Source of the DNA: a virus
Taxonomy: Duplodnaviria > Heunggongvirae > Uroviricota > Caudoviricetes
Reading direction: 5' to 3' (one strand)
Length of the DNA stretch: 48,662 nt
Virus record (IMG/VR): IMGVR_UViG_2547132418_000015
Position numbers and translations under genes: made by a program. Under the pieces are notes generated by a model. It saw only the letters and a program-made list of their open reading frames with translations. It ran no database searches and was not told the origin of the DNA. This document shows, piece by piece, positions 1 to 48,662 of this stretch (positions are counted from its first letter, which is position 1; each line of letters begins with the position of its first letter).

Positions 1-692
1 CAAATACGGCATCAGTTACCGTGAGCTGCAGGAGATGCTGGCTGAACGCGGAGTGAATGTCGATCACTCCACGATTTACCGCTGGGTTCAGCGTTATGCG
101 CCTGAAATGGAAAAACGGCTGCGCTGGTACTGGCGTAACCCTTCCGATCTTTGCCCGTGGCACATGGATGAAACCTACGTGAAGGTCAATGGCCGCTGGG
201 CGTATCTGTACCGGGCCGTCGACAGCCGGGGCCGCACTGTCGATTTTTATCTCTCCTCCCGTCGTAACAGCAAAGCTGCATACCGGTTTCTGGGTAAAAT
301 CCTCAACAACGTGAAGAAGTGGCAGATCCCGCGATTCATCAACACGGATAAAGCGCCCGCCTATGGTCGCGCGCTTGCTCTGCTCAAACGCGAAGGCCGG
401 TGCCCGTCTGACGTTGAACACCGACAGATTAAGTACCGGAACAACGTGATTGAATGCGATCATGGCAAACTGAAACGGATAATCGGCGCCACGCTGGGAT
501 TTAAATCCATGAAGACGGCTTACGCCACCATCAAAGGTATTGAGGTGATGCGTGCACTACGCAAAGGCCAGGCCTCAGCATTTTATTATGGTGATCCCCT
601 GGGCGAAATGCGCCTGGTAAGCAGAGTTTTTGAAATGTAAGGCCTTTGAATAAGACAAAAGGCTGCCTCATCGCTAACTTTGCAACAGTGCC
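1..692 (+). mobile_element. IS26 (IS6 family), 3' part ending with the terminal inverted repeat; the 5' part is at the window end
   Basis: IS6-family transposase ORF followed by TTTGCAACAGTGCC at 679-692, the reverse complement of GGCACTGTTGCAAA at 48309-48322; positions 1-231 are identical to 48432-48662. Confidence 0.93.
2..640 (+). CDS. tnpA: IS26 transposase, C-terminal part (N-terminus at 48372-48662)
   Basis: ORF 35..640 is open back to position 2; translation continues the 48372.. ORF (MNPFKGRHFQRDIILWAVRWY...YRAVDS | RGRTVDFYLSSRRN...). Confidence 0.93.
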   Translation, partial: KYGISYRELQEMLAERGVNVDHSTIYRWVQRYAPEMEKRLRWYWRNPSDLCPWHMDETYVKVNGRWAYLYRAVDSRGRTVDFYLSSRRNSKAAYRFLGKILNNVKKWQIPRFINTDKAPAYGRALALLKREGRCPSDVEHRQIKYRNNVIECDHGKLKRIIGATLGFKSMKTAYATIKGIEVMRALRKGQASAFYYGDPLGEMRLVSRVFEM

Positions 693-1044
693 CTTTTTTG
701 TTCAGGCTGGCATCCCAGATATCCAGATTTTCACGTGCTGTACGCTGTGCTGATGCCCCGGCAATTTTAATTTCGCTGAGGTTATTTTTTATCAGCAGCG
801 CGTTATTGCTCATAATGGCTTTAATGGACAGTGCAAGCTGGTTTAATTTTGTTTTATCCGGTTGAATACCGGCTTCTTTCAGCGTGTTTAATAACTCCGC
901 CTGCACAATATTAAACCAGTCCATGCCGGGCCATGTGATAGCATTATTCCCGTCACCTTCTGAAAACCAGCGAACGATAGCACTACGCTGGGCGGATACG
1001 GGCGGCATGACGGTTACGCCGCTGTCGTTATCAATATAAAACAT
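693..1044 (-). pseudogene. Tail fibre gene (Mu S-like), N-terminal 117 codons only, truncated by IS26
   Basis: ORF 586..1044 starts MFYIDNDSGVTVMPPVSAQRSAIVRWFSEGDG and reads into the IS26 terminal repeat after position 693; sits after the gp48-like gene as in Mu. Confidence 0.75.
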
Positions 1045-29374: not shown

Positions 29375-31363
29375 TTAAATGGCTTTTTTACGTCTGTTCT
29401 GTTCCAGAATATCCAGCGAATGATTCAGATATTCATCACGCTCAGTTTCGTATTCATCATCACGCTCCTGATTCTTCACCCGTTCCGTATTACCGGAAGG
29501 CCGGAAAATGCCGACAATTCGTGATTCTGGTGCTTCAGGTTCGGCTATCTGCGGCAGCAGCTCTGCCACTTCCAGTGCATCCATTTGTTTCTGTGCCTTA
29601 ATCGCTGCTTTCGTCGCAGATTTCAGTTGTTTCTGGCGGCGGCGATATTCACGGCCTGCCGCAGCATCATTAAACGCAACAGGTGCCAGACATTCCGCTT
29701 CACAGATAAACCGACCGTCCAGGGTGTAACAATAAACCGTGCTGTGTAGCTGCTGCGGATCAAACCTGACCACAACTTTTTTCACGCCGGCATTCATTAA
29801 TGCCATGTTGTAATAAACGTTTTTCGCGCCTTTAAGGGAGCCGCCAACTTTAAGCGTAAACTCGCCTTTGCGTGAAACGTTCACCGCCTCGGCAGGCAGT
29901 AACAGCATCCGTTTTTGTTCTTCGGTTGGCTTACGCACAATCGTTCTGGCGTATTCACGCTCGAAAACATCATCAAACGAGAGTTTGCCCCCGCACATTT
30001 CTGTTTCACGGCCTGTTCTGGCATTGAACATCGCCACACCTTCGGCAAGGTTTTTCAGAAACAGCTCTGCATCAACAGCGCGGTTGCCATAGTTATCAGG
30101 TTTTGCCTGCGGATTTGGCCCCGTATATGCGCCAGCCAGTGCCGGATGCTTATCAACGTATTCCTCAAGCCCACCAACACCGAAAGCACGTTCAACAGGT
30201 TTTGCCTGGCCCCAGCCTTTACCGGCAACAACGCTTGTCCAGTGCATTTTCGCACCCATCAGTAAAAACAATCCCTTTGGATCGTCTTCTTTCACCTTAA
30301 AGCGGTAGCGATTGGGCGCGCCTCCCGTCAGCCATTTATTCGCAGCACCACGGGTGTTATCAATGGTGATGTGAAAATCCTCCGGGATACCGTAGCGAGT
30401 CACAACATCCATGAACGAGAGGCGAATTGAATCAATGTTCTCGCTCACATCGCAGCGCCAGCCCAGAATTTTTCGGGTTTTCACATCCTGCCAGAACCAT
30501 GTTTTCGGGCGGATCACATCACCGTTAAACCAGCGTACAAAGACGTTATGCAGATAACCGTCGCCGTTGATCCACTGCATGGCGTCCAGGTGTTCCACAG
30601 TTCGCTGCTGTGCCGGTATCAGATGCATCAGTGCATGTTCACCTTCACGACAGGCAACAACCATTGCCTCGTCCAGTTGCTGAATCCGGCGAAAGGCCGT
30701 GGCACGGGAGGGAATCCTCCAGCCATGCTCGCGGGCTGCCAGTTCCAGACGCTCATAACATTTGCGGAAGGCGGGTTTTTCCGGTCGCAGATAATCTGCA
30801 ATCAGAAACTGCCAGGCATCCTCGTCAAATTCACTTTTGTGAACATTGCGACGGGATGCACCACGTCCATCAACAAGTGCAGCCGCCCAGTCAGGCTTCG
30901 CAAACTTCTGTACCTGGTAATACTTGTCCCGCAAAGTGGATGCGCTGACCTGGTAATGCCCTGCAACGGTCGCAAAAGCCGTTTTCGTTGAAATCCCCTG
31001 GTTCAGCATTTCGTCTGCAGCCTGAACCGCAGGCAACCATTTTTCAGCAAGTCTGCGCTGGGAATCGCTGGCTTTATCCCATTTGCTCCACAGCACCTCA
31101 CGATCATAATCATGGGCTTCCAGCGTGGGGCGGGCGATTTCAAAACGGCCCAGGCTTGTTTCAATTCTCCCTTGTTGCAACAGAATTTCAGCACGTAATG
31201 CGACAGGGAATGATTTGATATTGAATTCAAATGATACACCTTTAGTCCCTGCAACCTGTCTGAACTCCCAGCCTTCTCTTTGTGCCTTACGTGTAATGTT
31301 AGTGGCTTGCTTTGGTAAACCTGCCAAACCGAGCAACTCTTTTGCTGTATACCATTCTTTCAT
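29375..31363 (-). CDS. A: DDE transposase A
   Basis: 662-aa ORF, Mu A-like over most of its length with a divergent N-terminal DNA-binding region. Confidence 0.93.
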
Positions 31364-31370
31364 AGCGCAC

Positions 31371-31592
31371 CTAGTATCGAGACGGCCAAATATCTTGCGG
31401 TGTCATTCCCAGTGCATCTGCAATGATTTTCTCCGCTTTCGGATATCTCTTATCCAAAGCATTTTTTAATGTTGAAGACGAAAGATGATTAGATCTTCCC
31501 AATTCAGCTAGTGACATATTGCGTTTTCGTAGCTCTGCAACGATGTCAGCTCTGTGCCAATCTTGGCGGTTAGTTCTTTTATTCATATGCAT
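31371..31592 (-). CDS. ner: Ner-like early transcriptional regulator
   Basis: 73-aa ORF ending ...[14 protein letters not shown], first gene of the early operon. Confidence 0.85.
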
Positions 31593-31777
31593 TTCATGTA
31601 ATCCTTTCAGATTCCCCCGCGAGCTACGCTATAAAGTAGCTCACGGCATATCGTGCAATGTAGTGTGGAATCACTTTCAAATCAATAGTGATTTGAAAGG
31701 ATTTGCCATGATTTCATATAACAGCATGATTTTTATATGAATTTATTTTGTCTCTATTGAAATCACTAGGATTTTAA
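31593..31777. promoter_or_regulatory. Divergent early/repressor promoter and operator region
   Basis: Between divergent ner and c; palindromes AGCTACGCTATAAAGTAGCT (31622-31641) and CTTTCAAATCA-ATAG-TGATTTGAAAG (31674-31699). Confidence 0.7.
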
Positions 31778-32302
31778 ATGATGTCTTTTGAAATCAAAGA
31801 ATGGTTTAATGCGAAAGAGCTGGAAGGGATGCCTGGTGTACCAAAGTTGGCGACTAACATTACCAGGAAAGCTGTGGCGGAAGATTGGGTAAAACGTCAG
31901 CGTCACGGTGGGAAAGGTGTCGCTTATGAGTATCACATCAACAGTCTGCCAGAAGAAACACGCAGGGCCATTAAAGGAGCCTCACTTTCTGATAAACCAG
32001 TGCATACATCAATCGCCCATACAGTTGATGAGAGGCTAATTTATGCAATGAGCTTCTTAACACCAGATGAGCAGGCCGCAGCTGTGGAGATCATTCGTGT
32101 GGCAGGGATTAAAGGACTTATGCCTACAATTGTCAGTAAAGATAAGGCATTAGAGGCATTAGGGATTACTGTGGAGCAACAGAAAACCCTGCAAACTCTT
32201 CAGGCATTACCACCGGAAAAAGTGAGAGAGATTTTGTCTCAGTATGAAGGCAAAGAACATAATTTCCCTGTAAGAGAAAACGATGTAAAGAAAGCTGTAT
32301 AA
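31778..32302 (+). CDS. c: Repressor c (Mu/D108 family)
   Basis: 174-aa ORF with AGGA ribosome-binding site; C-terminus ...KVREILSQYEG...KKAV as in Mu-type repressors; divergent from ner. Confidence 0.85.
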   Translation: MMSFEIKEWFNAKELEGMPGVPKLATNITRKAVAEDWVKRQRHGGKGVAYEYHINSLPEETRRAIKGASLSDKPVHTSIAHTVDERLIYAMSFLTPDEQAAAVEIIRVAGIKGLMPTIVSKDKALEALGITVEQQKTLQTLQALPPEKVREILSQYEGKEHNFPVRENDVKKAV

Positions 32303-32641
32303 CAACCAGGTAATAGCTAAGACATAAACTTCACTCCAGGCAATTACATATGTAAGATACCCAAACAGTGATGATTGTTTTTGACACACATCACTTGCTG
32401 AAAGCCTGGTTGTTACCGTTTTTGAAGCATTTTTGAAGCTGTACTTGAAATGATGCGTGAAGTAATTGCTTTTCGTGTCTTTAATGAATCAAAAGCTGTT
32501 TCCAACAATCTTTCGCGTTTCAAGATGTAACGGCTAAAATCTGTCCTACAGGCTTGCAAGCCCCACTAAATCTAATCCCGCCAAATCCCGAATAATCCAA
32601 TGTCCTCCCGGTTTTTTTCGTACTTCAAGTGAATCAATACA
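32303..32641 (-). other. Prophage left end with transposase binding sites; terminus at 32641
   Basis: Minus strand from 32641 reads TGTATTGATTCACTTGAAGTACGAAAAAAACCGGGAGGACATTGG...; repeated TTTTCGT-type motifs. Confidence 0.85.
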
Positions 32642-32654
32642 GTGCTGATTTATG

Positions 32655-32957
32655 TCAGACGGGATTTTGCTTATCAATTATTGAGAACAGAAATTTTCCT
32701 GAATCATCAATACTATACTTAGCAAGTAAAGGTGTTTTCTCATTTATCTGCTTGAGTGCAGGATCAAGGAAAGATCGTTTCAACTCTGCCAAGTTCTTCT
32801 GCTGGGATTCCGGTAAGACGAAACGGTCATTTAACCAAGCATGAGTAGTAACCCATAAGCCTGAAGATTTGAATTGAGCAAGACTTTCATAAAGGCGGAT
32901 CGTCCGGGGATTTCGAAGACTGCCACAATCGCGGAGCGAGTAGGTGGTGAACTGGTT
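32655..32957 (-). pseudogene. Remnant of a second Rep_3-family initiator gene (C-terminal about 99 codons)
   Basis: Minus-strand translation QFTTYSLRDCGSLRNPRTIRLYESLAQFKSSGLWVTTHAWL...INEKTPLL...DKQNPV aligns with the C-terminus of the rep gene at 40612-41334; cut by IS1 at 32957/32958. Confidence 0.75.
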
Positions 32958-32972
32958 GGTAATGACTCCAAC

Positions 32973-33476
32973 TTACTGATAGTGTTTTATGTTCAGATAA
33001 TGCCCGATGACTTTGTCATGCAGCGCCACCGATTTTGAGAACGACAGTGACTTCCTGCCCAGCCTTGCCAGATGCTGCCTCAGATTCTGGTTATGCCGCT
33101 CAATTCGCTGCGTATATCGCTTGCTGATAACGTGCAGTTCTCCCTTCAGGCGGGATTCATAAAGCGGCCAGCCATCCGTCATCCATACCACGACCTCAAA
33201 GGCCGACAGCAGGCCCGGAAGACGCTCCAGCGTGGCCAGAGTACGCTCACCAAAGACGCGTGCCACCACCGTCCTGCACATCCTGCCATAGGCGTAAAAT
33301 AACCAGCGCTGACGTGATTTAGCCCCGACGTAGCCCCACTGTTCGTCCATTTCCGCGCAGACAATGACGTCACTGCCCGGTTGTATGCGTGAGGTTACCG
33401 ACTGCGGTCTGAGTTTTTTAAGTGACGTAAAATCGTGTTGAGGCCAACGCCCATAATGCGGGCGGTTGCCCGGCAT
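32973..33476 (-). CDS. insB: IS1 InsB (transposase frame, made as InsAB' by frameshifting)
   Basis: 167-aa ORF ...[22 protein letters not shown]... Confidence 0.88.
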
Positions 33477-33670
33477 CCAACGCCATTCATGGCCATATCA
33501 ATGATTTTCTGGTGCGTACCGGGCTGAGAGGCGGTGTAAGTGAACTGTAGCTGCCATGTTTTACGGCAGTGAGAGCAGAGATAGCGCTGATGTCCGGCAG
33601 TACTTTTACCGTTACGCACCACGCCTTCAGTAGCTGAGCAGGAGGGACAACTGATGGAGATGGAAGCCAC
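33395..33670 (-). CDS. insA: IS1 InsA
   Basis: 91-aa [46 protein letters not shown]... Confidence 0.9.
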
Positions 33671-33729
33671 TGGAGCACCTCAAAGACACCATCGTACACT
33701 AAATCAGTAAGTTGGCACCATTATCCGGC

Positions 33730-35650
33730 AGGCGATCTGGATTATCGTCACGCTGTTAAATATGTCGCGGTAGGGATACCCGTTACCGGATACCCCCCGC
33801 ACAGATCCCGGCGTGCGCGATTTACGCACCGGGCTCCTGCCTCGGGTGTCTGGCGGTGAACCGCTCCACAGGCCATGGATGAAGAACCCGAACCCTTGGT
33901 AGCCATGCGGCTGCCAGTTTGTTTGCTTTCGTCCAGGTCGTATCATCCTTCTGGCTCCTGCGCCTGAGCGCCCGGCGCCAGAGGTTTGTTACGTGTGTCC
34001 TGAACTTCTGCATGGTGGGGAAGTTGCCCGGTACCGAGTGATAGTTCAGGTATCCCTGAACCACTCTCCTGAGCCATTTTCCCTGTTCGGGGATTGAGTA
34101 ATGCCAGCGCCTTCGCAGACCGTCTTTGATGGCTTTCAGAGTTGCCGTCATCCGATCCCGGCGGGTCTTTCGTATCAGCATGAACCTGCCGTTGCGATCT
34201 TTCCCGCTGATGTGCGTGAACCCGAGGAAGTTGAACGTTTCTGGTTTGCCTTTTCCCCTGATGGCACGGTTTTCGGCAGCGAAGCGGCCGAACTCCATCA
34301 GACGGGTTTTCTCCGGGTGAACCGTGAGTCCGAACTCCCTCAGTCTGCGCTGCATGGCTATACGGAAGCGCCGGGCATCGTATCGTTTGTCGAACCCGAT
34401 GACGATGTCATCGGCGTATCTGACCATTACCACATTGCCTGTGGCATAGCGACGTCGCCACTGATGCGCCCACAGATCGAAGACGTAGTGGAGGTATATG
34501 TTTGCCAGCAGCGGTGAGATGACCGCACCCTGTGGGGTGCCTTCCTCCGTTGCTCGCCATTGACCCTCCTCCAACGTCCCGGCTGTGAGCCACTTACGTA
34601 TGAGCCTGATTACGCTCCGGTCGCCGATCCGATGCTCTGTGAACCTGATCAGCCATTCGTGGCTCACCCTGTCGAAGAACTGACTGATGTCGGCATCCAG
34701 TACCCAGTTTACGTTAGTGCGTACCAGCCCTGTGGCCAGTGCGTCCAGTGCATCGTGCTGGCTTCGCCCGGGTCTGAACCCGTATGAGAACCCCATAAAG
34801 TCGTTTTCATAGACTGCGTTCAGGATTTTCACCAGCGCATACTGGACGATCTTGTCCTCCAGCGAGGCGATGCCGAGCGGGCGTTGTTTTCCATCCGCTT
34901 TTGGGATGTAGTGACGCCTGCCGGGCTGCGCCCTGTAGCTGCCCTAATGTAGCCTCCGGTGCAGATCTGTTATGTTGTTCTTCATGTTTCCGGCGTAGTC
35001 CATCCACCTGATGCCATCCACTCCGGCGGCCGCTTTCCTGCTCAGGGAGAGGAATGCGGCTTCCAGTGCTTCGACTGTCAGCAGGTGGAACAATGCTGTA
35101 AACCGTTCTTTCTTCCGCTGCTTCGCAGCTTCCCGCACGCGTGACAGCCTCTGTGACATGCTTTCCCGGCTCTGTGTCCGGCGCATGTGTGGCTGTTCCG
35201 CGTTCCCCTTGGCCCCGCTCCTTCGCTCCACTGACTCCGCTCCTTTCGGGTTGTTCGCCTGCTTCGCCGCTACTATGAGCGAGTCCGACTTCTCCTCTCC
35301 GTACATCACCGGCTATGACTCCTCGTCTTCCCGGTGCGGGCCGTCTCCGACACTGGCAGATGGTCAGAGGGGAGATCTCCCGGTTCCCGCGTAGAGATCG
35401 TATTGACATGCCAGGGTCTCAGACCCCGCCGGGTCCATGTGGCACTCGCAGTATCGCACCCTATGATGTTGCCTTCCGTTAACAGTACAACGTCGGCACC
35501 CGGTAATTTAATATACATTTCGTGGCTCAATGGCTGGCCTGTCAACACCCCTGTCAACGCTTCGCCCCATACCTCGCGGTATGCAACGCATGACTCGGGG
35601 ACCTTGTGGATTGCTGGTCCTTCAATGGTCGGGGACTTTCACCCCTTGAT
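33730..35650 (-). mobile_element. Group II intron 1, boundaries approximate, 5' end possibly truncated
   Basis: Reverse transcriptase ORF; domain V-like GAGCCCGGTGCGTAAATCGCGCACGCCGGGATCT on the minus strand at about 33803-33836. Confidence 0.6.
33822..35309 (-). pseudogene. Group II intron reverse transcriptase/maturase interrupted by an in-frame TAG
   Basis: ORFs 34944..35309 and 33822..34832 are in the same frame, separated only by TAG at 34944-34946; motifs AAGVDG, FRPGRSQHDA, YADD. Confidence 0.8.
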
Positions 35651-35674
35651 CTCTACCGGTCTCCCGGTGAGCAC

Positions 35675-35690
35675 TGTATGTATAACCAGT
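35675..35690 (+). promoter_or_regulatory. LexA (SOS) box upstream of the umuD-like gene
   Basis: CTGTATGTATAACCAG fits CTG-N10-CAG, 26 bp upstream of the ATG. Confidence 0.75.
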
Positions 35691-35715
35691 AAAATTAGAG
35701 TGTCAGGAGGAAAGA

Positions 35716-36146
35716 TGAAACTACAACTTTTCAGCACCGGGAAAGAACTCCCGCCACAGGCCCATCCATTGTTTGCCGATCTGGCCAGCTGCGGTTTTCC
35801 CAGCCCTGCTGCTGACTATGTCGAGTCCGATCTGGATCTCCATGATTACTGCATACGGCATCCGAGCGCGACGTACTACCTGCGTGCCAGCGGAGACAGC
35901 ATGGCCGACGGCAGTCTGTACAATGGCGATCTGCTGGTTGTGGACAGTGCTGAAAAGCCGCGGCACGGCGATATCGTTGTCGCCAGCATGCAGGGGGAGT
36001 TTACGGTGAAACGGCTTCTGCTGACGCCGCGACTGACGCTGCAGCCCATGAATGCCTCCTGGTCGCCGATTTATCCTGATCCCGACGAGCTGGATATCTT
36101 TGGCGTCGTCACGCATATCATCCACCGCCCGAGGGAGATGTACTGA
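35716..36146 (+). CDS. UmuD-like translesion polymerase accessory protein
   Basis: 143-aa [37 protein letters not shown]... with Cys-Gly cleavage site; track ORF 35334..36146 is a spurious upstream extension. Confidence 0.88.
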
Positions 36147-37417
36147 TGTTTGCCCTGGCCGATGTGAACAGCTTCTATGCCAGCTGTGAACGTGTTTTCC
36201 GCCCGGATTTGAAAGGAAAGCCGATAGTCGTCCTGAGCAACAACGACGGGAATGTAATCGCTCGCAGTGCCGAGGCGAAGCCCTGGATCAAAATGGAAAC
36301 TCCGTGGTTTCAGATAAAAAACGAAAGATACCCGGAAAAAATATATGCGTTTTCAAGTAACTATGAACTTTATGCCTCGATGTTGGCGCGCGTGATGAAC
36401 AGCCTGGAGGAACTGGCCCCCAGAGTGGAACAGTATTCAATTGATGAGATGTTCCTCGATTTGACCGGCGTGGAGCACTGTATGGAGCTTGAGGACTTCG
36501 GCCGGCAGCTGCGTCAGCACGTGTATGACTGTACCCACCTGACCATTGGCGTGGGCGCCGGACCAACGAAGACCCTCGCAAAATCAGCCCAGTGGGCCTC
36601 AAAAGAGTGGAAACAGTTTCGTGGCGTACTTGCTCTGACCAGGGGAAATCCGCAGAGAACGCGGAAACTGCTTTCACTGCAGCCGGTTGAAGAAATCTGG
36701 GGGGTGGGTAACCGTATTGCACGCAAGCTGAATGTACTGGGCATTAAGACCGCGCTCGATCTCGCCCTGACGAACCCGGCCTTCATCCGCAAAAATTTTT
36801 CTGTGGTCCTTGAGCGAACGGTACGGGAACTGAACGGGGAAAGCTGCCTTTCGCTTGAGGAAGCCCCTCCGACGAAACAGCAAATTGTCTGCAGCCGCAG
36901 TTTTGGCGTGAAGATCACGGAGTACGAGTCACTCCGTCAGGCTATCTGTCAGCACGCAGAGCGGGCCTCTGAAAAACTGCGTAAAGAGCACCAGTATTGC
37001 CGGCATATTTCCGTTTTCATCAAAACGTCTCCGTTCGCCATTAAAGAGCCTTACTACGGCAACGTGGCTACGGAAAAACTTCTTACACCCACTCAGGACA
37101 CCAGGGACATCATTGCAGCCGCTACAACGGCTCTGGAGCGTATCTGGAGGGATGGGCACCGGTATGCCAAAGCCGGAGTTATGCTGAATGACTTCACCGG
37201 CTCCGGCGTTTCGCAGCTGCAGCTGTTCGACGAACGCCCGCCACGCCCTTACAGTGCTGAGCTGATGAAGGTTCTGGACGGGATCAACAACTCAGGGCTG
37301 GGTAAAGTATGGTTTGCGGGGCGGGGTATTGCCCCGGAATGGCAGATGAAACGGGAGATGCTTTCTCCTGCTTATACGACACGATGGTCAGATATTCCTT
37401 CAGCGAAACTGGCGTAA
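36146..37417 (+). CDS. UmuC-like error-prone DNA polymerase V catalytic subunit
   Basis: 423-aa [22 protein letters not shown]...SNNDG..., Y-family polymerase; start overlaps the umuD-like stop. Confidence 0.9.
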
Positions 37418-40070: not shown

Positions 40071-40565
40071 CTGTGGGAAACAGGTCAACTTTAATGGACG
40101 CTCCGGACTATGGGAAACAGGTCAACTTCGCGGACGGCCCGGACTATGGGAAACAGGTCAACTTCACGGGCGGCCGGGAGTGTGGGGAACAGGTCAACTT
40201 CGCGGACGGCCCGGACTATGGGAAACAGGTCAACTTCACGGGCGGCCGGGAGTGTGGGGAACAGGTCAACTTCGCGGACGGCCCGGATTATGGGAAACAG
40301 GTCAACTTCGCGGGCGGCCGGGACTGTGGGAAACAGGTCAACTTTGCAGACGGCCCGGACTGTGGGAAACAGGTCAACTTCGCGGGCGGCCGGGAGTGTG
40401 GGGAACAGGTCAACTTCGCGGACGGCCCGGACTAAGGGAAACAGGTCAGCTTCTCGGACGGCCCGGACTATGGGAAACAGGTCAACTTCTCGGACGGTCG
40501 GGAGTGTGGGAAACAGGTCAAGTTAGGCAAGCACTATGGGAAACACAGCAAGTTCAGTATCCCCC
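40071..40565. repeat. Array of 13 direct 36-bp iterons plus one degenerate unit, downstream of rep
   Basis: Unit TGGGAAACAGGTCAACTTCGCGGACGGCCCGGACTA repeated at 36-37-bp period. Confidence 0.9.
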
Positions 40566-42555: not shown

Positions 42556-43332
42556 TTAAATATTCCCTTTCAGCATGGCTACCGCATCCGCTTCGGGCAT
42601 CTGAAACTGAACTCGATGCCGCGCAGCAACATCAAGTGCGAACACCTTCGTATAGACTTCCGTCGAGCTAATCGATTTGTGGCCCATCAGGCTCTGCAAA
42701 ACCTTCAGTGGTATGCCGGCATACAGCATATGCATCGCGTAGGAGTGGCGGAACGTATGCGGGGTGACCGGCACCGAGAATGTCCCCCCGTCGACGGCGG
42801 CCGCTTCAACCGCTTCGCCAATCCAGGTCCGTACTGTCCGGTCGGTGATGTCCCAGATGCGGGCTTTCTCTGTTCTGCCGGTACGCTTGTTGCGTCTTTC
42901 CAGCGGAATTTTCAGGGTGGCCACCATCATCTGCAGCTGGCTGACGTAGTGGTGATCGGAAAGCGGAACCAGACGATGAGCCTGGCTACCGGCGGGAGCT
43001 CGGCCGGCTGTCCTGGCCGCTTTTTCGGTGCGCTGCTTAAGCGTGGCCAGCTGCACGAACGGATACGGTGGCACCAGCGAAAAATCCCCCCGGGTCAGCG
43101 CCAGCGCCTCGTTGATACGTGCGCCGGTGTTCCAGAGGGTTGCCAGCAGCATCTTGCGGTGCAAATCGGGCACATAATGGAGCAGGGCGCTGACTTCCGG
43201 TGCCAGCAGGTATTTCGGTAGTTCATCTTGAACGAGCGCCATCTGGCGCAGGGCCAGCGCGGCGGGATAGTCAATGGCCACCGGCATTTGCGCCGGCTGC
43301 TGCGGGTGAGAATATGATAAGAGGCCGCTCAT
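42556..43332 (-). CDS. Tyrosine site-specific recombinase, likely plasmid multimer resolvase
   Basis: 258-aa ORF with ...HTFRHSYAMHMLYAGIPLKVLQSLMGHKSISSTEVYTKV... (R-H-R-Y active-site pattern). Confidence 0.85.
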   Translation of the reverse strand: MSGLLSYSHPQQPAQMPVAIDYPAALALRQMALVQDELPKYLLAPEVSALLHYVPDLHRKMLLATLWNTGARINEALALTRGDFSLVPPYPFVQLATLKQRTEKAARTAGRAPAGSQAHRLVPLSDHHYVSQLQMMVATLKIPLERRNKRTGRTEKARIWDITDRTVRTWIGEAVEAAAVDGGTFSVPVTPHTFRHSYAMHMLYAGIPLKVLQSLMGHKSISSTEVYTKVFALDVAARHRVQFQMPEADAVAMLKGNI

Positions 43333-46265: not shown

Positions 46266-46620
46266 ATGTGTCGGGTCCTTAAGGTTGCCCGTGCCGGATT
46301 TTATGTCTGGCTCCATAACCCTGTATCTGCCGGAGAAAAGGATAACCAGCGACTGCTGGAACTCATCCGCGACTCCTATACGCTGAGTGGTGGAGTTTAC
46401 GGTTATCGCAGGGTTCATGGCGATCTTCGCGAAATTGGCGAAGTGTGCAGCAGAAACCGGGTTGCCAAAATCATGAGGAAAAACAGGATTCAGGCTATAC
46501 ATGGTTATAAAGTGCCACGCGGGAGCCGGGGACGACCGTCACTGATAGCGCCTAATCACGTGCGGCGTGAATTTACTGTAGTGAAGCCCAATCAGGTGTG
46601 GGTCACCGACATCACCTACA
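46266..46620 (+). pseudogene. IS3-family transposase OrfB, N-terminal part, interrupted by a group II intron
   Basis: Ends ...NQVWVTDITY, then the reading frame enters intron sequence beginning GTGTG at 46621. Confidence 0.8.
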
Positions 46621-48308
46621 GTGTGCCCGGAGTTCAGGGCGGGCATGGATGCTTAAATGAACCGCGAGTCTGTCTGGAATATTGAACCGGTAACTCACGA
46701 TGAGAAACCCAACAATCCCACCGGGTGTGACGGTGGAGAACCTGAGCGGCAGTGACCTGCGGCATGCCCGCAGGGTGATGTAACCCGCTGACAACGGGGA
46801 TTGAGGCGAGATCACTAAGCCGAGATGATCCTCAAGGTTAAGTACTGAAAGGCTGAAGAACATGAACCCGTTAATCCGCCTCTGTGGGTTGAAAACGTCA
46901 CCACGGCCTACGTGATCTGACAGGCCGTGCAGGAGGAACTGGCAGTGATACGTAAGCACTGCCGGTCGAAGGTGTTTTGACATGTATGCGAAACACCGGG
47001 GCAGCAGCGTCTATCACGCTTGCGTTGCTGACTTCTGCCAACTTGCGGCAAGCAAGGATAAAGAGTGCGACGGGCAGCCTCCTCAGTATGCCTGAGTCCA
47101 GGCAGGTAAACCGGGGAAGGTCAGCGACGGATGTTAAGGGGGCATGGCTCCGATGACGCGCTGGCTGGCGGAGCTTCCGTAGTAGTCCGCGATGGGGAAA
47201 GCCCATTACATGGCGAAGGGAAGCAGTTTGAATGTGTTTGCGACGTGAATTAACTGACCTAACGAGGTGAAGACCTTTGATAATCAGCGAAATGCAACGC
47301 AAGCTTGCCACATGGGCAGCCACCGATCCGTCCCTACGGATTCAACGGCTGCTGCGTCTGATAACACAACCAGAATGGCTGGCTGAAGCGGCGCGGATCA
47401 CGCTTTCATCAAAGGGGGCGCATACCCCCGGCGTTGATGGCGTGAACAAAACAATGCTACAGGCCAGACTGGCTGTTGAGCTGCAAATCCTCAGGGATGA
47501 ATTACTCTCAGGCCACTACCAGCCCTTGCCCGCCAGACGGGTTTACATCCCTAAAAGCAACGGCAAACTGCGACCACTGGGTATCCCCGCGTTGCGGGAT
47601 CGTATTGTTCAGCGGGCCATGCTGATGGCGATGGAGCCGATATGGGAGAGTGATTTTCATACGCTCTCATATGGCTTCCGGCCTGAGCGCAGTGTCCACC
47701 ACGCGATCCGCACGGTGAAATTACAGCTCACAGACTGCGGTGAAACCCGGGGACGCTGGGTGATTGAAGGCGACCTGTCCAGTTACTTCGACACCGTACA
47801 TCATCGACTGCTGATGAAGGCTGTACGCCGCAGGATCAGTGACGCACGTTTCATGACTCTGCTGTGGAAAACCATCAAGGCGGGACATATCGATGTCGGT
47901 CTCTTTCGGGCGGCCAGTGAAGGTGTGCCACAGGGCGGTGTTATATCGCCGCTATTATCGAACATCATGCTGAATGAGTTCGATCAATACCTGCATGAGC
48001 GCTACCTGAGCGGGAAAGCCAGAAAAGATCGGTGGTACTGGAATAACAGTATCCAACGGGGCCGAAGTACGGCGGTCAGAGAAAACTGGCAGTGGAAACC
48101 CGCGGTGGCGTACTGCCGCTATGCCGATGATTTTGTCCCCATCGTCAAAGGCACCAAAGCACAGGCGGAAGCCATCAGGGAGGAGTGTCGGGGTGTGCTC
48201 GAAGGCAGTCTGAAACTCAGGCTGAACATGGATAAGACTAAAATCACCCATGTTAATGACGGCTTTATCTTTCTGGGGCACAGGATCATTCGCAAACGCA
48301 GTCGTTAT
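46621..48308 (+). mobile_element. Group II intron 2 (5' part), inserted in IS3-family orfB and truncated by IS26
   Basis: Starts GTGTGCCCGG; about 656 nt of structured 5' region, then a reverse transcriptase ORF that runs into the IS26 terminal repeat at 48309. Confidence 0.8.
47277..48308 (+). pseudogene. Group II intron reverse transcriptase/maturase, C-terminally truncated by IS26
   Basis: ORF 47277..48335 with HTPGVDGVNK, YIPKSNGKLRPLG, YCRYADDFV motifs; last residues are read from the IS26 terminal repeat. Confidence 0.85.
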
Positions 48309-48662
48309 GGCACTGTTGCAAATAGTCGGTGGTGATAAACTTATCATCCCCTTTTGCTGATGGAGCTGCACATGAACCCATTCAAAGGCCGGCATTTTCA
48401 GCGTGACATCATTCTGTGGGCCGTACGCTGGTACTGCAAATACGGCATCAGTTACCGTGAGCTGCAGGAGATGCTGGCTGAACGCGGAGTGAATGTCGAT
48501 CACTCCACGATTTACCGCTGGGTTCAGCGTTATGCGCCTGAAATGGAAAAACGGCTGCGCTGGTACTGGCGTAACCCTTCCGATCTTTGCCCGTGGCACA
48601 TGGATGAAACCTACGTGAAGGTCAATGGCCGCTGGGCGTATCTGTACCGGGCCGTCGACAGC
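48309..48662 (+). mobile_element. IS26, 5' part beginning with terminal repeat GGCACTGTTGCAAA
   Basis: Terminal repeat at 48309-48322, transposase start at 48372; 48432-48662 is identical to 1-231. Confidence 0.93.
48372..48662 (+). CDS. tnpA: IS26 transposase, N-terminal part
   Basis: MNPFKGRHFQRDIILWAVRWYCKYGISYRELQEMLAERGVNVDHSTIYRWVQRYAPEMEKRLRWYWRNPSDLCPWHMDETYVKVNGRWAYLYRAVDS. Confidence 0.93.
   Translation, partial: MNPFKGRHFQRDIILWAVRWYCKYGISYRELQEMLAERGVNVDHSTIYRWVQRYAPEMEKRLRWYWRNPSDLCPWHMDETYVKVNGRWAYLYRAVDS

Follow-up and report, generated by a model that had tools for sequence, protein, structure and literature searches.

Copies of IS26 on plasmids commonly lack flanking duplications, and intramolecular transposition of the element in cis deletes the adjacent DNA and leaves no duplication behind (PMC4471558). 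None of the IS26 copies examined in clinical plasmids had flanking duplications (PMC4471558; He et al. 2015, mBio), and IncR plasmids that contain six to nine copies of IS26 behave likewise (PMC11047700). An IS26 element that lies between truncated genes without a target-site duplication is the norm on enterobacterial plasmids and carries little biological weight. The copy described here abuts the tail-fibre gene S of a Mu-family prophage in an IncR plasmid, and this prophage was probably cut by a secondary IS26 event, either an adjacent deletion or a recombination between two IS26 copies.

The window, which is the whole stretch of DNA that was analysed (48,662 bp), represents the entire draft contig APZN01000103.1 (NCBI GCA_000358145.2). 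This contig was matched via an exact-protein look-up of the cut reverse transcriptase, and its last 11,371 bases are those of the window. The window is composed of a 47.6-kb unique segment with IS26 sequence at both ends in the same orientation. The parts of the element and the bases next to it are as follows:

48309 to 48662, plus strand: positions 1-354 of IS26, which take in the left inverted repeat (48309-48322) and the tnp26 5' part; here the contig breaks off within the element
1 to 692, plus strand: positions 129-820 of IS26, which take in the tnp26 3' part and, at 679-692, the right inverted repeat; the contig opens within the element, and the sequence equals the IS26 of NZ_CP024857.1
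48301 to 48308, no strand: the 8 bp outside the left repeat, GTCGTTAT, which are the final intron bases; the intact intron goes on with GGCGAGATG
693 to 700, no strand: the 8 bp outside the right repeat, CTTTTTTG, which belong to S itself; in intact copies of S, GAACGAG(G/T)C is directly followed by CTTTTTTGTTCAGG

Merging of the two window ends over a 226-bp overlap yields exactly 820 bp; the element is bounded by perfect 14-bp terminal inverted repeats (GGCACTGTTGCAAA) and shows 0 differences from the canonical IS26 of NZ_CP024857.1. The merged element encodes a single DDE transposase of the IS6 family, Tnp26 (234 amino acids plus stop). The window contains one left repeat (GGCACTGTTGCAAA, 48309-48322) and one right repeat (679-692), and no further IS26 terminal repeats were found in it with two mismatches allowed. 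Both junctions fall to the base on the IS26 termini, which points to ends made by the transposase. The sequence-only reading had placed the ends of IS26 at 48309 and 692 and had described the outside 8-mers as different; coordinates and sequences are both borne out, GTCGTTAT and CTTTTTTG being the same at only two of eight positions. No 8-bp direct repeat flanks the element in a near-identical sibling contig (AQEY01000006.1) either, where TCCAGCTC stands against CTTTTTTG. The S-side IS26 is thus without a matching 8-bp repeat whether its left neighbour is the intron, as in the window, or an IS110-family gene, as in the sibling, and the claim that there is no target-site duplication stands under either layout.

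A search for further IS26 copies and for matching 8-mers had also been proposed from the sequence, and within the window it came to nothing: no second copy is present, and the recurring 8-mers lie away from IS26 ends. The extra copies of the two 8-mers (1024 and, as reverse complement, 13814; 19238 and 28628) occur at about chance frequency and touch no IS26 end. One of them, GTCGTTAT at 1024-1031, is found 332 bp from the right end of IS26 and near the start of S, and about 0.7 occurrences per strand are expected.

The two flanks of IS26 were correctly recognized as truncated genes, namely Mu S, which is cut after codon 117 of 504, and a group II intron reverse-transcriptase gene, which is cut after about 339 of 502 codons. 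A simple insertion of IS26, the 8-bp duplication of which has since mutated or been masked by sequencing error, would account for the presence of a complete IS26 but for nothing else. The chance of such an origin is negligible. The flanks come from unrelated genes (the intron or an IS110-family transposase gene on one side and Mu S on the other), each of which continues differently in intact copies; the 8-mers match at two of eight positions, and the intact S and intron sequences already refute this explanation. The rejection of simple insertion in the sequence-only reading is upheld by the two unrelated truncated flanks and by junctions placed exactly at the IS26 termini.

The left flank of IS26 in the window is the following feature:

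46622 to 48308, plus strand: the 5' 1.69 kb of a group II intron, with GTGTG at 46622 and a reverse-transcriptase gene that starts at 47292 and is cut at 48308

The cut reverse-transcriptase gene retains a recognizable RVT_1 domain (E=1e-33), and the cut intron is 99.8% identical to intact copies annotated as ltrA. The reverse-transcriptase reading frame and the 5' GUGYG motif of group II introns are present. Domain V/VI is absent from the window, and an intact copy has it just past the gene (RF00029, 64.9 bits); the intron is therefore truncated. The Rfam D1-D4 models gave no match in the 5' part of the cut intron, and its identity rests on the 99.8% match to the annotated copies. The intron sits within the orfB of an IS3-family transposase (46560-46625), the translation of which reads VWVTDITY up to the GTGTG. 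A second intact intron copy in NZ_CP024857.1 is preceded by the same 14-15 bp, in keeping with homing into an IS3-family element.

The junction of GTCGTTAT with GGCACTG, the first bases of IS26, is identical in E. coli D6 plasmid A, which is the sole contiguous case in PLSDB. The identical intron-IS26 junction is also present in the draft contigs L017-L020, in which delta-mefB-sul3 and a class 1 integron follow directly on the IS26 right end, and in the draft contig L023, in which this end meets delta-Tn2 tnpA-tnpR-blaTEM. One flank of the element is thus ancestral and shared, and the other is variable (delta-mefB-sul3, delta-Tn2 and, if the contig is continuous through IS26, Mu S), as is found after adjacent deletion. 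The reciprocal half of the insertion into the intron (the right end of IS26, GTCGTTAT and the intron remainder) had no contiguous match in PLSDB. Since the intron-IS26 junction recurs with other right-hand neighbours, the IS26-S junction is a later, separate event. Comparison with related plasmids, which had been proposed as a check on the element as a whole, therefore bears on the two junctions differently: the intron-IS26 junction is inherited, and the IS26-S junction arose separately and later.

The intron forms the end of a plasmid backbone:

32642 to 48308, no strand: IncR plasmid backbone, 99.6% collinear with NZ_CP024857.1 (to about 48311)

The order of the elements in this backbone is IS1, the retA intron, umuC, parBA, 36-bp iterons, repB, resD, vapBC, an IS3 remnant and the cut intron. 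A Rep_3 initiator with an iteron array, parAB, resD, vapBC, umuC and retA are all present in IncR order, and the collinear record is typed as IncR in PLSDB. The iteron array (40074-40521) contains 12.4 copies of the 36-bp unit and is 72 bp, or two units, shorter in AQEY01000006.1; the difference could be a real variation in copy number or an assembly collapse. The IS1 copy (32958-33725, 768 bp, IS1X3-like) lacks a 9-bp target duplication, with the flanks GAACTGGTT and CGGCAGGCG. The same arrangement of IS1 is found in NZ_CP024857.1 and is therefore ancestral to the IncR backbone. The second group II intron, the IncR 'retA' element, occupies 33822-35639 on the minus strand and scores 186.6 bits against the Rfam D1-D4-6 model (35414-35639). 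The reverse transcriptase of this intron is spread over two open reading frames (34807-35409 and 33822-34832), suggestive of a frameshift or of decay.

The remainder of the unique segment is a prophage, to which the cut tail-fibre gene belongs:

693 to 32641, minus strand: Mu-family transposable prophage, collinear with Mu from about 31809 down to 1, with the last 4.9 kb absent
693 to 1044, minus strand: Mu tail-fibre gene S, of which the 5' part remains (the first 117 of 504 codons); the product shares 97% identity with residues 1-118 of Mu gpS
32612 to 32641, minus strand: intact Mu left end (TGTATTGATTCACTTGAAGTACGAAAAAAA), which abuts IncR DNA, with the target pentamer GTGCT at 32642-32646

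The prophage DNA is 96-98% identical to Mu over most of its length, and Pfam matches include MuA, MuB, a repressor and the gp44-48 baseplate proteins. The Mu left-end terminus, MuA, MuB and the Mu-collinear gene order are those of a Muvirus. The right end is not in the window, and of the 5-bp target duplication GTGCT alone is seen, at the left end. The repressor/ner region is divergent; the stretch 31175-32641 contains this region without DNA-level alignment to Mu, and the 360 bp of the left end are only about 80% identical. As judged from this divergence, the prophage probably resembles D108 in being heteroimmune to Mu. An assignment of the tail-fibre gene to a phage-plasmid was considered and rejected, the gene being part of a prophage of the Mu family that entered an IncR plasmid by transposition.

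A Mu-free empty site is present in NZ_CP024857.1, where aggctcatgt is directly followed by GTGCTGATTT. The Mu left end lies precisely against IncR DNA in the window, and together with the empty site this means that a Mu relative came into the IncR backbone by its own transposition, so that the same plasmid must at one time have contained the right end. A total of 4,908 bp of Mu (31810-36717) is absent from the window, which comprises the 3' part of S, U, U', S', gin, com, mom and the right end. No Mu right end (terminus CGTGAAACGCTTTCGCGTTTTTCGTGCGCCGCTTCA) was found in this contig with 3 mismatches allowed.

The left boundary of the invertible G segment lies 157 bp beyond the cut in S, and all relatives examined have an uninterrupted S at the cut site. 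The open frame of S continues into IS26 to 586, and the resulting S-IS26 fusion matched no record on exact-protein look-up. The junction on the S side is exact to the IS26 terminus, and Tnp26 is therefore implicated, not Mu or random recombination. Mu replicative transposition is able to cause adjacent deletions, and the prophage might have been truncated by such an event, or else by illegitimate or homologous recombination in which IS26 took no part, with IS26 merely nearby. Such a history is highly improbable. Deletions made by Mu retain both Mu ends and the right end is missing here, and the breakpoint coincides with the IS26 terminus to the base.

The IS26-S junction is known only from the window contig and from the sibling AQEY01000006.1, which was the sole match among viral contigs. 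It was not found in PLSDB or in the metagenome and species-representative genome collections, the latter two of which were scanned by exact pattern. Among 5,426 complete E. coli genomes, 45 contain this Mu lineage and 0 have IS26 in S. In PLSDB the right flank had a sole match, CP088505.1, in which S is intact. The complementary junction, in which the 3' part of S (GAACGAGGCCTTTTTTG) and CTTTTTTG would be joined to the left end of IS26 (GGCACTGTTGCAAA), was absent from the viral, metagenome and species-representative collections, which exclude the other contigs of GCA_000358145.2 and GCA_000355295.1. No Mu right end from the sibling genome was found in IMG/VR. The contig L026 was considered as a source of the sibling's Mu right end and was rejected, as it represents a different Mu insertion in another genome with the S site intact. 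No literature relevant to these assembly accessions or to Mu in IncR plasmids was found.

The continuity of the window through IS26 depends on the ends of the contig. APZN01000103.1 opens at IS26 position 129 and closes at IS26 position 354, and the first 226 bases of the window are the same as its last 226. This overlap is wholly internal to the repeat and therefore does not prove a circle with one IS26, which is an assumption. Contigs that open and close inside one insertion sequence can mimic circles, here by 226 bp, and such false circles can enter catalogues as complete viruses or phage-plasmids. The sibling contig AQEY01000006.1 (GCA_000355295.1; 49,238 bp) is listed in IMG/VR as a viral genome (IMGVR_UViG_2534681703_000016), though one third of it is an IncR replicon and its phage has no right end.

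In the parts compared, AQEY01000006.1 differs from the window by one substitution (window position 42785) and by the 72 bp in the IncR iteron array. On the intron side this contig likewise stops in IS26. On the S side it contains a complete IS26 and then 74 bp of an IS110-family transposase gene (positions 1-74), with the flank TCCAGCTC, and its two IS26 copies differ at IS26 position 42. The ends of the contig are of low quality, with two 1-base deletions near one end. The truncated IS110-family gene directly adjoins this complete IS26, the copy that cuts S, at its left end. Of 54 places with an intact copy of the gene, 47 are on E. coli plasmids, among them plasmids from human isolates, one of which came from Mali (p204446_92). 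The contig AQDV01000034.1, from an assembly with a neighbouring accession, reads straight through IS26. IS26 is most probably present in multiple copies in the APZN and AQEY genomes, because two independent assemblies break within the same 820 bp while AQDV01000034.1 runs through. The statement in the sequence-only reading that one IS26 joins the tail-fibre gene to the intron depends on closing a draft contig through a repeat; it is not sustained, the sibling having an IS110-family gene as the left neighbour.

These observations bear on a further explanation, by which the window ends belong to two different IS26 copies with more DNA between them, such as a resistance region ending in the cut IS110 or a cointegrate replicon, and Mu may be undeleted. 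This layout, the main rival, is rather unlikely. Another IS26, with a matching CTTTTTTG, would then adjoin the rest of S and the Mu right end, in a composite insertion or an unresolved cointegrate, an arrangement to which we give the same rather low probability. The window contig and the sibling contig each begin and end inside IS26, the sibling has the layout truncated IS110, IS26, truncated S with a base difference at position 42 between its IS26 copies, and AQDV01000034.1 crosses IS26, so that the breaks here point to a repeat and not to a random cut of a circle. The lack of a complementary junction in the viral, metagenome and species-representative collections argues weakly against it, and the 74-bp IS110 end of the sibling could be a mis-extension through the repeat, the contig ends being of low quality.

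The 47.6-kb segment and one IS26 might also constitute a 48.4-kb IS26 'translocatable unit' that contains the whole IncR replicon and the Mu prophage without its right end. Such a unit would alternate between a free circle (intron, IS26, S) and a form integrated beside IS26 in another plasmid (truncated IS110, IS26, S). Its existence is doubtful; if true, it would explain the different left neighbours in the two sibling assemblies.

The favoured origin, a secondary IS26 event in the Mu prophage, involves two junctions. The intron-IS26 junction is the older one and was inherited from plasmids of the IncR-sul3 type. In a later, lineage-specific step, Tnp26 would have joined an IS26 end into codon 118 of Mu S. 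The likeliest route would be intramolecular replicative transposition in cis, an adjacent deletion, from the resident IS26 into S, which would leave no duplication. An equivalent route would be for a second IS26 to insert and for the two direct copies then to recombine. Both routes would delete what follows the cut in S, together with U, the G segment, gin, com, mom, the Mu right end and plasmid DNA on its far side. The two junctions stem from separate events, and the outside 8-mers therefore need not match. The outcome would be an IncR-borne Mu prophage that has no right end in the contig and is unable to make tail fibres.

The two junctions themselves, the identification of Mu and IncR, the empty site and the recurrence of the intron junction are directly observed; we infer the deletion mechanism, and likewise which left flank the S-side IS26 has. 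The location of both ends of the draft contig inside IS26 and the IS110-family gene to the left of the S-side IS26 in the sibling count against a deletion, and searches for an excised product or intermediate turned up none. The explanation of the locus by IS26-mediated deletion or cointegrate resolution, as first offered from the sequence, is consequently retained in part: the event was not a simple insertion, but a deletion, an unresolved cointegrate and a composite insertion are indistinguishable from this contig.

This locus is a natural case in which a Mu-family phage moved by transposition into a plasmid of a kind on record from several enterobacterial genera; IS26 may later have immobilised it there. 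Provided that the deletion is real, the prophage would lack the right end and the tail-fibre, invertase and mom genes and should neither transpose nor form infectious particles. It would then persist as cargo on an IncR replicon that contains rep, par and toxin-antitoxin genes.

Several plasmids resemble parts of the locus. E. coli D6 plasmid A (NZ_CP010149.1) and the IncR-sul3 contigs L017-L020 share the IncR backbone and the intron-IS26 junction (100% over 3 kb), whereas they contain no Mu, and the right end of their IS26 abuts delta-mefB-sul3 and the class 1 integron with the flank CATTTATG. The IS26 of D6 plasmid A (8010-8829) has AA for GG at positions 613-614, which changes Gly184 to Asn. 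This difference was considered as an arbiter between deletion and IS26-IS26 recombination and is uninformative, the variant of the ancestor not being known. NZ_CP024857.1 likewise has no Mu, and beyond its complete intron lie a different IS110-family element and a BREX locus.

The prophage shares the left-end terminus, MuA, MuB and the head and tail genes with phage Mu (NC_000929.1), PhiR68_1, SfMu and D108. In contrast to Mu and its relatives, it is plasmid-borne, lacks the region corresponding to Mu 31810-36717 and has a divergent repressor/ner region. Plasmid pE16EC1016-8 (CP088505.1) is the only PLSDB plasmid with this Mu lineage and is 98.2% identical over the baseplate region. Unlike the window, it contains a complete prophage (S, U, invertible segment, invertase and mom) with no IS26 in S, and it is not an IncR plasmid. 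The combination of Mu and IncR is uncommon, because this Mu lineage occurs in only one PLSDB plasmid and is complete there.

IS26 adjacent deletions and cointegrates in resistance plasmids (PMC4471558; IS6-family review PMC7986276) are the closest described events, and they share with this locus the 820-bp IS26, the lack of an 8-bp duplication, the truncated neighbours, and one conserved and one variable flank. The locus differs from them in that a Mu-family tail-fibre gene, and not a resistance or backbone gene, is cut, and in that its continuity is unproven in a draft contig. The behaviour of IS26 at this locus is already known; it does not depart from that of the described systems and does not represent a new kind of system.
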